3,402 nt of DNA, from the IMG/VR virus record IMGVR_UViG_2778261300_000007. One strand, 5' to 3'. The position numbers and the translations under genes were made by a program. Under the pieces are notes generated by a model that worked only from the letters and a program-made list of their open reading frames with translations, was not told the DNA's origin and searched no databases. This stretch comes from a virus (taxonomy: Duplodnaviria; Heunggongvirae; Uroviricota; Caudoviricetes). Numbering within the stretch: position 1 is the stretch's first letter; the number at the start of each line of letters is the position of its first letter. Shown in pieces: positions 1 through 3,402 of this stretch.

Positions 1-1143
1 CTATGCTGTTTTGATATCTACGATAATCCAGTCTTTACCACGATCATCATTGTATCGGTCGGTCATTTTTCTGGATTTATGGCCTAACAACTTTTGCGTA
101 TCCAGACCCTGTTCCCGATATAACCGTTCTGACAGAGATCGCTGCTCATGAAATGTGGGCGCAGTTCCTTGCTCCCATTTTATGCCACATTTTTCCCTGG
201 CCTTTTTAAAAGCCGTTGTCAGAGTATTTGCAGAAACCTGGTCTCCTCTGTTTGCTTGAGAGGTAGTGTGACGGTAATGGACCAGATATTTACTAACAAC
301 AGCATCCCTGCACTGAGATATAACTTCACGAAGGGTAATATTCAGAGCATCGCATTTCAGGTTAAGCGGAATAGCAAGTTTTGAACCGGTTTTTTCCTGA
401 GTAATGTGCAACATGTCGTCCCAGATATCAGAGAATTTCAAATTGCAGATATCACCTAAACGTTGTCCAGTAACAAGAGCAAGTAGCATGCCGCATTTTA
501 AATAGGGCTGCCGTCTGCTTACGCTTTCAAATATTGCCTGCCATTCGGGCAGTGACAATCTTTGGCGGTTTACTCGATTTCGCGGTTGTTTTGTTGCCTG
601 CGCTGGGTTAAATCCTGGCGGAACATGTCCTGCGTGTTGTGCTTCTTTGAAGACGTCGATCAACACCATTCTCACGACTTGCGCCATCCTGTTATGACCT
701 TCAGCCTTTACAGCATCAATTATTTCGGCAATATCAAGTGCGGTAATATCCTTGAGGTGTTGCATTCCACAATGCTCACGGAAAAGACGAATGGGTTTGC
801 CTTTTTGCCGATAGGAGTTGGGTCTTAGTTCATTATGTTGCAGCCTGTCCTCCTGGATAGAAATATATTTATCAAGCCATTCTGTCACCGTAATGTCTGA
901 GCGCCTGCCTTTCATTCTTTCCAGACGCTCATTGACGCTTAATATTTGTCTGGTACGTTGTTCAGCAATAATGGTATTTGCTTCAGTAGCAACTTGTTTT
1001 GCTTCATTCTCATCAGTTCCTAAGCTATGAAAACGACCGGATAGTGGATGTTTGTATTGCCAATATACCTTTCCGGTTCGCTTATCTAATTTGCAATATA
1101 AATTGGGTATAGAGATTTTGTGAGATCGGGGTCTAGCAGCCAT
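1..1143 (-). CDS. int: Site-specific tyrosine recombinase, lambda-family phage integrase (380 aa, complete)
   Basis: Full ORF with ATG at 1143..1141 and stop at 3..1. Conserved lambda-Int-like catalytic motifs are present: TGQRLGD (Arg), HEQRSLSERLY (His-x-x-Arg), LLGHKS (His) and DRYNDDRGKDW (Tyr nucleophile), closely paralleling lambda Int TGQRVGD / HELRSLSARLY / LLGHKS / SQYRDDRGREW as recalled. The start overlaps the xis 3' end by 11 bp, the classic xis-int arrangement. Confidence 0.9.
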   Translation of the reverse strand: MAARPRSHKISIPNLYCKLDKRTGKVYWQYKHPLSGRFHSLGTDENEAKQVATEANTIIAEQRTRQILSVNERLERMKGRRSDITVTEWLDKYISIQEDRLQHNELRPNSYRQKGKPIRLFREHCGMQHLKDITALDIAEIIDAVKAEGHNRMAQVVRMVLIDVFKEAQHAGHVPPGFNPAQATKQPRNRVNRQRLSLPEWQAIFESVSRRQPYLKCGMLLALVTGQRLGDICNLKFSDIWDDMLHITQEKTGSKLAIPLNLKCDALNITLREVISQCRDAVVSKYLVHYRHTTSQANRGDQVSANTLTTAFKKAREKCGIKWEQGTAPTFHEQRSLSERLYREQGLDTQKLLGHKSRKMTDRYNDDRGKDWIIVDIKTA

Positions 1144-1369
1144 CAGCGATTATCCGTTGGAGTTTTGGGTTTGCGTTTATTGGGAGTTGCGGTTCTGCAA
1201 GCGTTCCTACAAAACGGGAATTTCGGTCAATCATCCAGTAGCGACCAACTTTTATAGCGGGTGGGGCCATCATTTTCCCTTGCGCGTATTTTTTCAGAAC
1301 TCGCTCACTTGGTGCTAAGTCCCCAAATTCTTCTTTAGCCCAGTCCTGTAAAGTGATTAGTCGAGACAT
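1133..1369 (-). CDS. xis: Excisionase / recombination directionality factor (78 aa)
   Basis: Immediately upstream of and overlapping int. The N-terminus MSRLITLQDWAKEE... and PPAIKVGRYWMI parallel lambda Xis MYLTLQEWNARQ... and PPPVKDGREYLF (winged-helix Xis fold). A strong SD (GAGGAGG, complement of 1374..1380) lies 4 nt upstream of the ATG at 1369..1367. Confidence 0.8.
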   Translation of the reverse strand: MSRLITLQDWAKEEFGDLAPSERVLKKYAQGKMMAPPAIKVGRYWMIDRNSRFVGTLAEPQLPINANPKLQRIIADGC

Positions 1370-1508: not shown

Positions 1509-1748
1509 CTATTTCCTGCGTATGGCACGTAACTTCTTAATGTGTTCTGCCGTTTCGATCTCTTCTGCTATCCGATCTGCATCAGCTTTATTCACAGGTT
1601 CAAAGTCATGATTAAAGCGGAACATGCTGGCGATACATGTTCTGCCTTTTCGGATGTAGTGAACTTTGTTGTGGGTAGAACGCAGGATTTTGCAGGGAGT
1701 GCCGTGGTGGTCGACGTACCAGGTGTTAGGAAAAATGATTCTGAACAT
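1509..1748 (-). CDS. Hypothetical small phage protein (79 aa), family not assigned
   Basis: ORF with a good SD (GAGGTG, 5-nt spacer) upstream of the ATG at 1748..1746. Co-oriented with int/xis and with the upstream TraR-like gene, 47 bp gap. Basic C-terminus (KKLRAIRRK). No recognisable catalytic motif; family assignment would need an HMM search. Confidence 0.55.
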   Translation of the reverse strand: MFRIIFPNTWYVDHHGTPCKILRSTHNKVHYIRKGRTCIASMFRFNHDFEPVNKADADRIAEEIETAEHIKKLRAIRRK

Positions 1749-1795: not shown

Positions 1796-2014
1796 TCACA
1801 GTCCCCATTGTTTGTTCTTAAGTTCGATCTCCTCCTGGCAACTTGCACAAGTCCGACAACCCTGAACGGCCAGGCGTCTTCGTTCATCTATCGGATCGCC
1901 ACACTCACAACAATGAGTGGCAGATATAGCCTGGTGGTTCAGGCGGCGCATTTTTATTGCTGTGTTGCGCTGTAATTCTTCAATTCCTGATGCTGAATCA
2001 ATGATGTCTGCCAT
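1796..2014 (-). CDS. TraR/DksA-family C4-type zinc-finger protein (72 aa), phage TraR-like RNA polymerase-binding regulator
   Basis: Four-Cys motif CECGDPIDERRRLAVQGCRTCASCQ matches the TraR/DksA zinc finger (compare F-plasmid TraR CEACGNPIPEARRK...CVECQ as recalled). Size (~72 aa) and position in a phage early-left operon are as in lambdoid TraR homologues. AGGGA lies upstream of the ATG at 2014..2012. Confidence 0.85.
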   Translation of the reverse strand: MADIIDSASGIEELQRNTAIKMRRLNHQAISATHCCECGDPIDERRRLAVQGCRTCASCQEEIELKNKQWGL

Positions 2015-2063
2015 CTTTCATTAATCCCTGAATTGTTGGTTAATACGCTTGAGGGTGAATGCG

Positions 2064-2090
2064 AATAATAAAAAAGGAGCCTGTAGCTCC
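2064..2090 (-). terminator. Candidate rho-independent terminator (minus-strand sense) between the 71-aa gene and the TraR-like gene
   Basis: On the minus strand: GGAGC-TACAG-GCTCC (5-bp GC-rich stem, 5-nt loop; plus 2076..2090) followed immediately by TTTTTTATTATT (complement of 2064..2075). The stem is short, so strength is uncertain. Confidence 0.4.
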
Positions 2091-2112
2091 ATGATGATTT
2101 TGTTTTTCATGC

Positions 2113-2328
2113 TCACCGTTCCTTAAAGACGCCGTTTAACATGCCGATCGCCAGGCTTAAATGAGTCGGTGTGAATCCCATCAGCGTTACCGTTTCGCGG
2201 TGCTTCTTCAGTACGCTACGGCAAATATCATCGACGTTTTTATCCGGGAACTGCTGTCTGGCTTTTTTGATTTCAGAATTAGCCTGACGGGCAATACTGC
2301 GAAGGGCGTTTTCTTGCTGATGTGTCAT
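2113..2328 (-). CDS. Hypothetical protein (71 aa from ATG at 2328; the ORF track gives a 93-aa version from the ATG at 2394)
   Basis: Open frame ending at the TGA at 2115..2113. The internal ATG at 2328..2326 overlaps (ATGA) the stop of the candidate 27-aa micro-ORF and has a weak GGGA upstream. The longer start at 2394 has no SD, and its extension (MHFSGSGLHILCAYACRHGTCS) is Cys-rich and atypical. Start choice is unresolved. No recognisable family motif. Confidence 0.5.
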   Translation of the reverse strand: MTHQQENALRSIARQANSEIKKARQQFPDKNVDDICRSVLKKHRETVTLMGFTPTHLSLAIGMLNGVFKER

Positions 2329-2408
2329 TGAACAAGTCCCATGTCGGCAAGCATAAGCACACAGAATATGAAGCCCGCTGCCAGAAAAATGCATTCAGTG
2401 GTTGTCAT
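2325..2408 (-). CDS. Candidate 27-aa hydrophobic micro-protein (MTTTECIFLAAGFIFCVLMLADMGLVQ), not in the ORF track
   Basis: Reverse-complement translation of 2408..2325. The ATG (2408..2406) overlaps the TGA stop of the 74-aa ORF (2407..2405) as ATGA, and its TGA stop (2327..2325) overlaps the ATG of the 71-aa ORF as ATGA. It exactly fills the 77-nt gap and has a purine-rich stretch (GAGAGAGACCAGG) upstream. The hydrophobic core suggests a single short membrane helix. Confidence 0.3.
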   Translation of the reverse strand: MTTTECIFLAAGFIFCVLMLADMGLVQ

Positions 2409-2629
2409 ACCTGGTCTCTCTCATCTGCTTCTGCTTTCGCCACCATCATTTCCAGCTTTTGTGAAAGGGATGCGGCTAACGTATGAAATTCTTCGTCTGT
2501 TTCTACTGGTAGACCTCTAAATCGTGCACAGGCTCTGGCGAAGATCGCAGAAATCAAAGCTAAGTTTGGGCTGAAAGGAGCAAGTGTATGACGGGCAAAG
2601 AGGCAATTATTTATTACCTGGGGACGCAT
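2405..2629 (-). CDS. Doubtful 74-aa ORF (hypothetical); may instead be non-coding divergent control region
   Basis: ORF present in the track, but there is no SD upstream of the ATG at 2629 and the first 14 codons are antisense to the well-supported plus-strand Cro-like ORF. The only in-frame alternative start (TTG) also lacks an SD. The C-terminal part is protein-like and its stop is ATGA-coupled to the micro-ORF, so it is not excluded. Confidence 0.2.
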   Translation of the reverse strand: MRPQVINNCLFARHTLAPFSPNLALISAIFARACARFRGLPVETDEEFHTLAASLSQKLEMMVAKAEADERDQV

Positions 2630-2761
2630 AAGAGTTTCTGTGCGCAGGACGTTGCTGCGGCAACAGGTGTGACAGTAACCTGCATAAATCAGGCAGCAGC
2701 TAAAATGGCGCGTGCAGGAATCCTGGTCATTGATGGTAAGGTCTGGCGAACGTTTGTTTAA
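2588..2761 (+). CDS. Small Cro-like helix-turn-helix DNA-binding protein (57 aa), not in the ORF track
   Basis: ATG at 2588 preceded by a strong SD (AAGGAG at 2575..2580, 7-nt spacer); stop TAA at 2759..2761. The translation MTGKEAIIYYLGTHKSFCAQDVAAATGVTVTCINQAAAKMARAGILVIDGKVWRTFV has HTH plus beta-hairpin spacing like lambda Cro ([30 protein letters not shown] as recalled, versus ATGVTVTCINQAAAKMARAGILVIDGKVW). It is divergent from the leftward small-gene operon. Confidence 0.5.
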   Translation: MTGKEAIIYYLGTHKSFCAQDVAAATGVTVTCINQAAAKMARAGILVIDGKVWRTFV

Positions 2762-2907: not shown

Positions 2908-3402
2908 ATGAGAAAATTTATTTTAGCCTTTGTCATAAGTGCCTCGTTTACAGCAAATGCTGGTGTAGAGAAGTTAGGGCCGTGGATAACAAAGTCTGAG
3001 ATAAATAAAATGACTGACCAGACTGACTTTGTGGCTCTTAATTTATCACCAGATTCATATAACAAAGCAGGTACTGATCGTGCAACTTCACTGGTGTTGC
3101 GTTGTAGTGATAACAAAACAGATGCCTATTTATCATTCAATGATTATATGGGTTCGGACAACCCAAGAATTACAGTGCGGTTAGATGGCGGAAAGCCGGT
3201 CAAGAGTGTTTGGGGTGGTGGGGAAGGCGGCGATTCTGCATTTGCTCCACAACCAATACAATTTATAAAGACCTTGGCTAAGCATAAAAAAGCTATTTTT
3301 GGGTTTGAACCTTATGGATCAACTATGCAAGTAGTTGAGTTTGACTTGTCTGAGATTGATAAGGTTGTGGAAAAAATTTCACAGTCTTGCAATTGGAAAT
3401 GA
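2908..3402 (+). CDS. Exported (periplasmic/secreted) protein of unknown function with N-terminal signal peptide (164 aa)
   Basis: Strong SD (AAGGAG at 2895..2900, 7-nt spacer) before the ATG at 2908; stop TGA at 3400..3402. The N-terminus MRKFILAFVISASFTANA-G has a basic n-region, hydrophobic core and A-x-A signal-peptidase I site. The mature part has exactly two Cys (possible disulfide) and a Gly-rich loop (VWGGGEGGD). No catalytic motif recognised. Confidence 0.75.
   Translation: MRKFILAFVISASFTANAGVEKLGPWITKSEINKMTDQTDFVALNLSPDSYNKAGTDRATSLVLRCSDNKTDAYLSFNDYMGSDNPRITVRLDGGKPVKSVWGGGEGGDSAFAPQPIQFIKTLAKHKKAIFGFEPYGSTMQVVEFDLSEIDKVVEKISQSCNWK

Follow-up and report, generated by a model that had tools for sequence, protein, structure and literature searches.

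An intact orf73-type gene of the TraR branch carried in a defective lambdoid prophage

A 72-codon reading frame on the minus strand of a phage-derived DNA raises the questions of which protein it encodes, how that protein would act, and whether the copy found here is still connected to the signals that express it. The window, i.e., the whole stretch of DNA that was analysed, spans 3,402 nucleotides. A preliminary description made from the letters alone had read the frame as a TraR/DksA-type zinc-finger protein encoded in a leftward early operon. The present analysis identifies it as a lambdoid prophage orf73 gene, whose product belongs to the TraR branch of the DksA/TraR family and which has become an intact passenger in a defective element; this reading is given a probability of about 0.93.

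Family assignment and relation to lambda Orf73

The frame runs intact from ATG to stop over 72 codons, exactly at positions 1796 to 2014 of the minus strand (MADIIDSASGIEELQRNTAIKMRRLNHQAISATHCCECGDPIDERRRLAVQGCRTCASCQEEIELKNKQWGL), in agreement with the size of about 72 amino acids given in the preliminary description. The gene and the parts of it discussed below are as follows.

1796 to 2014, minus strand: orf73-type gene, encoding a 72-aa C4 zinc-finger protein of the TraR family (stop codon included)
1991 to 2008, minus strand: DxxDxA motif, codons 3 to 8 (D3-I-I-D6-S-A8), at the tip of the N-terminal helix
1838 to 1912, minus strand: zinc site C35-x-x-C38-(17)-C56-x-x-C59, codons 35 to 59, from the alignment with TraR
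1874 to 1879, minus strand: codons of R46-R47, equivalents of TraR R48/R49 in the alignment
1805 to 1846, minus strand: C-terminal helix, codons 57 to 70, a helix of the model (TraR-C element, which contacts the beta lobe-Si1)

The TraR/DksA-type identity holds in the profile search that the preliminary description had named as its refutation test. Against Pfam PF01258 (zf-dskA_traR), the protein scores 35.2 bits, above the gathering score of 24.9, with residues 33 to 64 covering profile positions 4 to 35 of 36. The match to phrog_54 ("DksA-like zinc-finger protein") extends over residues 1 to 70, with an E value of 5e-25. The score against NCBIfam TIGR02419 (C4_traR_proteo, [quoted passage not shown]) is 52.4 bits and lies below the cut-off of 59.7; lambda Orf73 (54.7 bits) is also below it, whereas F TraR passes with 80.5 bits. 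This cut-off excludes the whole Orf73 subgroup, because the validated lambda Orf73 itself misses it, and the sub-threshold score was for the same reason rejected as an argument against membership.

Residues 1 to 69 align end to end with residues 1 to 71 of TraR (5w1s/6n57), and a profile built from 49 homologues matches TraR with an E value of 2e-9. Conservation was counted among 49 homologues of 58 to 89% identity. Cysteines C35, C38, C56, and C59 align with C37, C40, C58, and C61 of TraR in a CxxC-17-CxxC spacing, which is compatible with a C4 finger. The four-cysteine signature that had been noticed in the letters thus fits the C4 ligands, but the protein contains six cysteines in total, C36 and C53 being extra, as they are in lambda Orf73. 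C35, C38, and C56 occur in all 49 homologues and C59 in 46; C53 is present in 48 of the 49 members of this subgroup and C36 in only 13. In the DxxDxA motif, D6 and A8 are invariant (49/49) and D3 is found in 47 sequences. The arginine pair is similarly conserved (R46 in 48/49 and R47 in 47/49). The segment E44-x-x-R47-L48 is the counterpart of E46/R49/K50 in TraR, with a leucine in place of the lysine, as in lambda Orf73. In the C-terminal helix, E64 (49/49) and K68 are invariant among the homologues, and position 70 is tryptophan in the allele of the window (codon at 1805 to 1807) and arginine in 46 of the 49.

The precedent of lambda Orf73, which the preliminary description had named, proved correct. 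In lambda, Orf73 is a 73-codon reading frame between ea22 and orf61, at 30392 to 30613 on the minus strand, that is missing from the NC_001416 annotation. The protein of the window is identical to it at 64 of 71 residues (90%). Both genes have the same start context, the same upstream hairpin, and the same upstream genes, orf61 and orf63, and both proteins have the six cysteines, the DxxDxA motif, and E44-x-x-R47-L48. The protein analysed here is one residue shorter (72 versus 73 aa), the final K73 being absent. Of the eight positions that differ, six lie in the C-terminal helix, which touches beta Si1. The differences comprise E10G, V49A, and a diverged C terminus (EEIELKNKQWGL versus EDLELISKQRGSK). 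At the DNA level, the two loci are about 98% identical from orf61 through approximately codon 61 of orf73 and then diverge (near alignment column 611). Despite this break in the DNA, the C terminus of the protein is still like that of lambda, with the pattern E-[ED]-[IL]-E-L-x-x-K-Q-x-G, and a Citrobacter homologue has nearly the same C terminus as the protein of the window. The orf73-type gene and lambda orf73 are effectively one gene.

The gene is a common Escherichia allele of phage lambda orf73 and is already known. An identical 72-aa protein is found on at least 1,000 public contigs and is named [quoted passage not shown] in the databases; the DNA of the locus is present in 3,355 of 5,426 complete E. 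coli genomes (about 62%).

Among characterised proteins, TraR of the F plasmid (5W1S and 6N57) is the best structural match. It shares the length class, the three-element architecture, the C4 spacing, the DxxDxA motif, and the R48/R49 equivalents, but it is only about 32% identical, it is encoded in a tra operon rather than carried by a phage, and its K50 is the residue replaced by leucine here. The score against the corresponding NCBIfam equivalog, NF010268, is 28 bits versus a cut-off of 108. E. coli YbiI (2KGO) is the best single-sequence match in the PDB over the zinc-finger segment (E = 1e-5); the match is limited to residues 30 to 67, the score of 43.3 bits is below the equivalog cut-off of 96, and ybiI is a chromosomal rather than a prophage gene. 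E. coli DksA (1TJL, 5VSW, and 7KHI) has the zinc-finger domain family, the secondary-channel binding mode, and the acidic tip in common with the protein, but it has 151 residues, a coiled-coil N-terminal half, and a need for ppGpp as a cofactor. The 72 residues encoded here amount to the C-terminal half of DksA without the coiled-coil half, and the DksA structures align with the model described below over their C-terminal half only (target TM of 0.27 to 0.30). Because the equivalog cut-offs are missed by wide margins, the protein is not an orthologue of plasmid TraR, YbiI, or DksA, and filing it under any of these three equivalogs was rejected.

Other phage proteins of the family, namely, P2 Orf82, VHML Orf8, VP882 Orf61, and Xenorhabdus Gp34, all bind RNA polymerase (RNAP) and inhibit rrnB P1; their identity to TraR is 32 to 49%, and lambda Orf73 is more potent than they are (PMC9239242). 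The protein of the window belongs to the Orf73 subgroup and not to theirs.

The defective prophage around the gene

The genes on either side of orf73, and the junction that interrupts them, are as follows.

1 to 1143, minus strand: int, phage 21-type tyrosine integrase gene (Pfam Arm-DNA-bind_1 and Phage_integrase)
1133 to 1369, minus strand: xis, excisionase gene (Pfam Exc, phrog_629)
1509 to 1748, minus strand: DUF4222 gene, 79 aa, downstream of the orf73-type gene (Pfam PF13973, E = 1.4e-19)
2113 to 2394, minus strand: upstream gene, full-length Orf61 homologue, a reading frame of 93 aa (phrog_303, E = 7e-43; alignment to lambda)
2405 to 2629, minus strand: chimeric reading frame of 74 aa, whose C-terminal 35 or so residues are Orf63 (DUF1382)
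2508 to 2511: deletion junction, a 4-bp microhomology GGTA common to orf63 and gene P, from a three-way comparison with intact prophages
2508 to 2591, plus strand: last 84 nt of replication gene P, whose stop codon TGA (2589 to 2591) overlaps the start of ren

The small hypothetical gene and the xis-int pair that had been noted as neighbours of the frame are all present on the minus strand, the former being the DUF4222 gene. The int and xis genes are 98.7% identical to those of phage 21; the downstream module, which in lambda consists of ea22 and ea8.5, is here DUF4222 with a phage 21-type xis-int. The 139-nt gap between DUF4222 and xis contains an inverted repeat (1463 to 1501) with a 16-pair stem, mostly A/T, which the terminator scan assigns to the plus strand. 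The window is an exact substring of Logan contig SRR29736265_6, which was seen in four samples and was retrieved, with the junction described below, by an exact-protein look-up of the chimeric reading frame. The 174 contig bases to the left of position 1 belong to the 3' end of icd and the attL region and are all identical to E. coli N1420, showing that the element occupies the phage 21/e14 attachment site.

In intact relatives, the leftward order is repressor region-kil-gam-bet-exo-DUF1317 (orf60a)-DUF1382 (orf63)-orf61-TraR-like gene-DUF4222-xis-int, beside icd, and a prophage integrated at the lambda att site has the same gene order as these icd-integrated relatives. Prophage homologues from Enterobacter and Citrobacter, with 65 to 75% identity, also lie between recombination genes and DUF4222-xis-int. 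The occupation of the same slot in E. coli, Enterobacter, and Citrobacter indicates that the position is conserved across genera and on both lambda-like and P22-like backbones. For the Orf61 homologue, the RefSeq and Logan gene calls start at 2328 and give a product of 71 aa. In lambda, one additional A in a run of A residues divides the same frame into the annotated orf61, of 61 aa, and a second, unannotated frame of 60 aa; that lambda Orf61 is truncated has been noted before (PMC8614690).

The similarity of the window to the intact arrangement ends at 2511, and from 2508 on the sequence matches at 99.9% the region of E. coli EC21Z-014 annotated as "replication protein P / protein ren / TagO." The left and right alignments share the four bases GGTA at the junction, as is typical for deletions that arise by illegitimate recombination. 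Against an intact prophage in which both flanks are present, the deletion amounts to about 6.5 kb and takes in exo, bet, gam, kil, the repressor/cro region together with the early promoters, O, and most of P. The losses in the window also include orf60a and the 5' part of orf63. The remaining 3' part of orf63 forms the end of the chimeric reading frame, in which the Pfam DUF1382 match is limited to residues 30 to 71 and the N-terminal part is, according to the junction mapping, the antisense strand of P and ren. The junction was not found in 5,426 complete E. coli genomes or in 50,697 phage records. A 34-nt junction sequence also had no match in a one-genome-per-species collection, which is uninformative for a strain-level deletion. 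An assembly chimera is an unlikely cause of the junction, as the two sides share only 4 bp and the contig was seen in four samples.

The element is thus a defective icd-integrated prophage without early promoters and immunity region. The placement in a "leftward early operon" is true of the intact relatives, but in this copy the early control region upstream has been deleted; the term describes the ancestry of the gene and not its present wiring.

On the far side of the junction, the ren homologue (2588 to 2761, plus strand) encodes only 57 aa and matches phrog_7054; a match to the Ren-like phrog_142 spans its first half. In the 99.9%-identical prophage, RefSeq lists ren as "frameshifted; internal stop." It is followed by a gene at 2908 to 3402 on the plus strand for a 164-aa protein with a signal-peptide-like N terminus (MRKFILAFVISASFTANA). 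This protein scores 26.7 bits against Pfam VasI (threshold, 26.5 bits), matches phrog_1848, and is named "type VI secretion system-associated protein TagO" by PGAP. The TagO-like gene resembles a moron that was inserted into the nin region behind ren, and on both the Logan contig and E. coli EC21Z-014 it is followed by a HEPN-domain gene and hypothetical genes.

Expression of the stranded copy

In contrast to lambda orf73, the copy described here is cut off from the early promoter, and one further element lies between orf61 and the start codon.

2066 to 2090, minus strand: terminator-like hairpin GGAGCT-ACA-GGCTCC followed by a T-run, from a pattern scan, 52 nt upstream of the orf73-type start

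An identical hairpin and T-run are found in lambda at 30663 to 30689. A literature search yielded no coordinates for the lambda terminator tL3. The lambda fragment carried by pKD46 (31088 to 33241) presumably includes tL3, a terminator that would then lie upstream of the hairpin site. The candidate assignment of the hairpin (2076 to 2090) to tL3 was set aside, and it matches instead the terminator t2 predicted in PMC4195576. In that work, Bloch et al. predicted the hairpin to be a terminator, and the lambda orf73, ea22, and ea8.5 transcripts downstream of it were lower. The same study placed a predicted sigma-70 promoter, p1, immediately before orf73, where it overlaps t2, and in phage 24B the orf73 and ea22 transcripts were above those of the upstream genes after induction with H2O2 (PMC4195576). 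The hairpin is also spanned by a GTG-initiated reading frame of 31 codons (2021 to 2116, minus strand), which ends just before the orf73-type start, has an equivalent in lambda, and gave no family match in Pfam, PHROG, or NCBIfam.

Both p1 hexamers are present in the window, with TCATCA at 2092 to 2097 as the -35 element and TATTAT at 2065 to 2070 as the -10 element on the minus strand. Their 21-nt spacer is poor for sigma-70. A scan for sites with 16- to 18-nt spacing retrieved 6 promoter-like sites in the window, against an expectation of 6.2 in shuffled sequence, and none on the minus strand between the hairpin and the orf73-type ATG. Since the count is at the level of chance and no site falls between the hairpin and the start, no promoter is claimed.

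The orf73-type gene in the remnant is detached from the leftward early promoter. Its protein can be made only if a local promoter or transcription reading in from outside the element serves it, and it may not be made at all. Because the operon control region is gone, statements on expression at the time of induction do not carry over to this copy, and as the deletion at 2508 to 2511 removed the early control region, induction cannot drive it in the usual way. For the intact phage, the role in induction or lysogeny proposed in the preliminary description is matched in part: lambda Orf73 has been described as acting in lytic growth once the prophage is induced, whereas a role in lysogeny is disputed (PMC9239242 and PMC8614690).

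The possibility that the gene is now a silent relic, with a reading frame that is intact only because the deletion is recent, which is not transcribed, serves neither host nor phage, and will decay, stands at about even odds. The upstream part of the leftward operon has been replaced at 2508 to 2511 by the opposite-strand 3' end of P, the hairpin lies close to the start while the antiterminator gene N normally resides in the deleted stretch, and the promoter scan gave only the chance-level count reported above. On the other hand, the protein is identical to the allele found on at least 1,000 contigs and is therefore undamaged, and p1, with both of its hexamers retained, together with the raised orf73/ea22 transcripts of 24B (PMC4195576), points to a possible local source of transcription. 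In any case, silence would concern expression in one element and not what the gene encodes. The opposite possibility, that the stranded allele is still expressed, for example from the predicted p1 over t2, and has been retained by the host to slow rRNA transcription independently of ppGpp, which would make it a domesticated phage regulator whose properties W70 or C53 may have altered, is improbable.

RNA polymerase binding, coding constraint, and significance

An AlphaFold2 model built on the 49-homologue alignment has a pLDDT of 77.9, with low confidence for the first six residues, and presents helices at residues 8 to 27, 44 to 49, and 57 to 70. TraR is divided into an N-terminal helix (residues 2 to 27), a globular domain (28 to 57), and a C-terminal helix (58 to 73) (PMC6970531), and the predicted helices match this division. 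The best PDB match of the model in Foldseek is 6n57_M, TraR on RNAP (probability of 1.00, TM of 0.55, and rmsd of 5 Å), followed by 5w1s_M, YbiI, and DksA. A moderate TM would be expected when a model of the free protein is compared with a bound structure; for lambda Orf73, an rmsd of 4 Å has been reported (PMC8614690).

The mechanism is known from TraR and lambda Orf73. In cryo-electron microscopy of TraR on RNAP, the N-terminal helix has its tip beside the Mg2+ of the active site, the globular domain rests on the beta' rim helices and on Si3, and the C-terminal helix lies on the beta lobe-Si1 (PMC6970531), with R48 and R49 contacting the rim helices and beta' Si3 (PMC9239242 and PMC6970531). 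Gopalkrishnan et al. showed that purified lambda Orf73 binds in the RNAP secondary channel and competes with DksA (PMC9239242). It inhibits rRNA and ribosomal protein promoters without ppGpp, with a 50% inhibitory concentration of about 50 nM at rrnB P1 and inhibition also of rpsT P2, and its D3N and D6N variants are defective in vitro (PMC9239242). Lambda Orf73 complements a dksA-null strain, slows host growth, and increases phage yield 3- to 4-fold after induction, with a larger burst size (PMC9239242). Unlike TraR, it activates the promoters tested, three host promoters, weakly if at all, for which the authors tentatively blame the two extra cysteines (PMC9239242).

The same mechanism is assigned to the protein of the window because every residue class singled out in PMC9239242 and PMC6970531 is present in it. 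The 72 residues would form two helices, one at each end, with a small Zn(Cys)4 globular domain between them. The N-terminal helix would enter the secondary channel of E. coli RNAP and bring the D3/D6 tip beside the active site, the globular domain would seat on the beta' rim helices, and the last helix would touch the beta lobe-Si1. Binding is predicted to alter the conformation of RNAP in such a way that promoters with short-lived open complexes, i.e., those for rRNA and ribosomal proteins, are inhibited in the absence of ppGpp, and during lytic growth this would turn host resources over to the phage. Like TraR and Orf73, its homologues, the protein would act alone, with no requirement for ppGpp. 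RNAP binding and effects on promoters can be expected with high confidence from the 90% identity to the lambda protein on which they were tested.

A main target other than RNAP is very unlikely. Earlier work, as cited in PMC9239242 and PMC8614690, connected lambda orf73 and the genes around it with an inhibited initiation of host replication and with an effect in favour of lysogeny. Nevertheless, lambda Orf73 occupies the DksA site of RNAP and needs D3 and D6 for its effects, the effect on replication is indirect according to the authors of PMC9239242, and TraR and DksA work without binding DNA (PMC9239242). In addition, all RNAP-contact motifs are conserved in the protein considered here.

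The length of the frame alone is no proof of a gene because the window contains 35 reading frames of at least 30 aa, and the coding evidence therefore comes from comparison. In a library of 1.84 billion proteins, 544 cluster representatives are related to the protein at an E value of 1e-3 or below. Comparison of the gene with its Citrobacter and Enterobacter homologues gives pS of 0.75 to 0.84, which is near saturation, and pN of 0.16 to 0.21. This pattern is that of a translated, constrained gene and points to strong purifying selection. A chance reading frame or annotation artefact, with the true feature on the opposite strand, deserves hardly any credence: short frames are indeed frequent in the window, and one of 68 aa overlaps the gene on the plus strand (1769 to 1975), but the PF01258 and phrog_54 matches exceed curated thresholds, the substitution pattern shows constraint, there are 544 homologue clusters, the lambda frame is expressed according to ribosome profiling cited in PMC9239242 and PMC8614690, and an Rfam scan of the whole window found no RNA family at an E value of 1 or below.

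The family, its mechanism, and its lambda representative have already been characterised experimentally, and this exact protein is already named in the databases. The locus serves as a clean positive control, in which a 72-aa regulator was correctly recognised from raw sequence. It also illustrates that gene order alone can mislead, as the apparent early operon has lost its control region. The unusual twist is that an intact orf73-type gene is stranded in a prophage remnant without its normal promoter.
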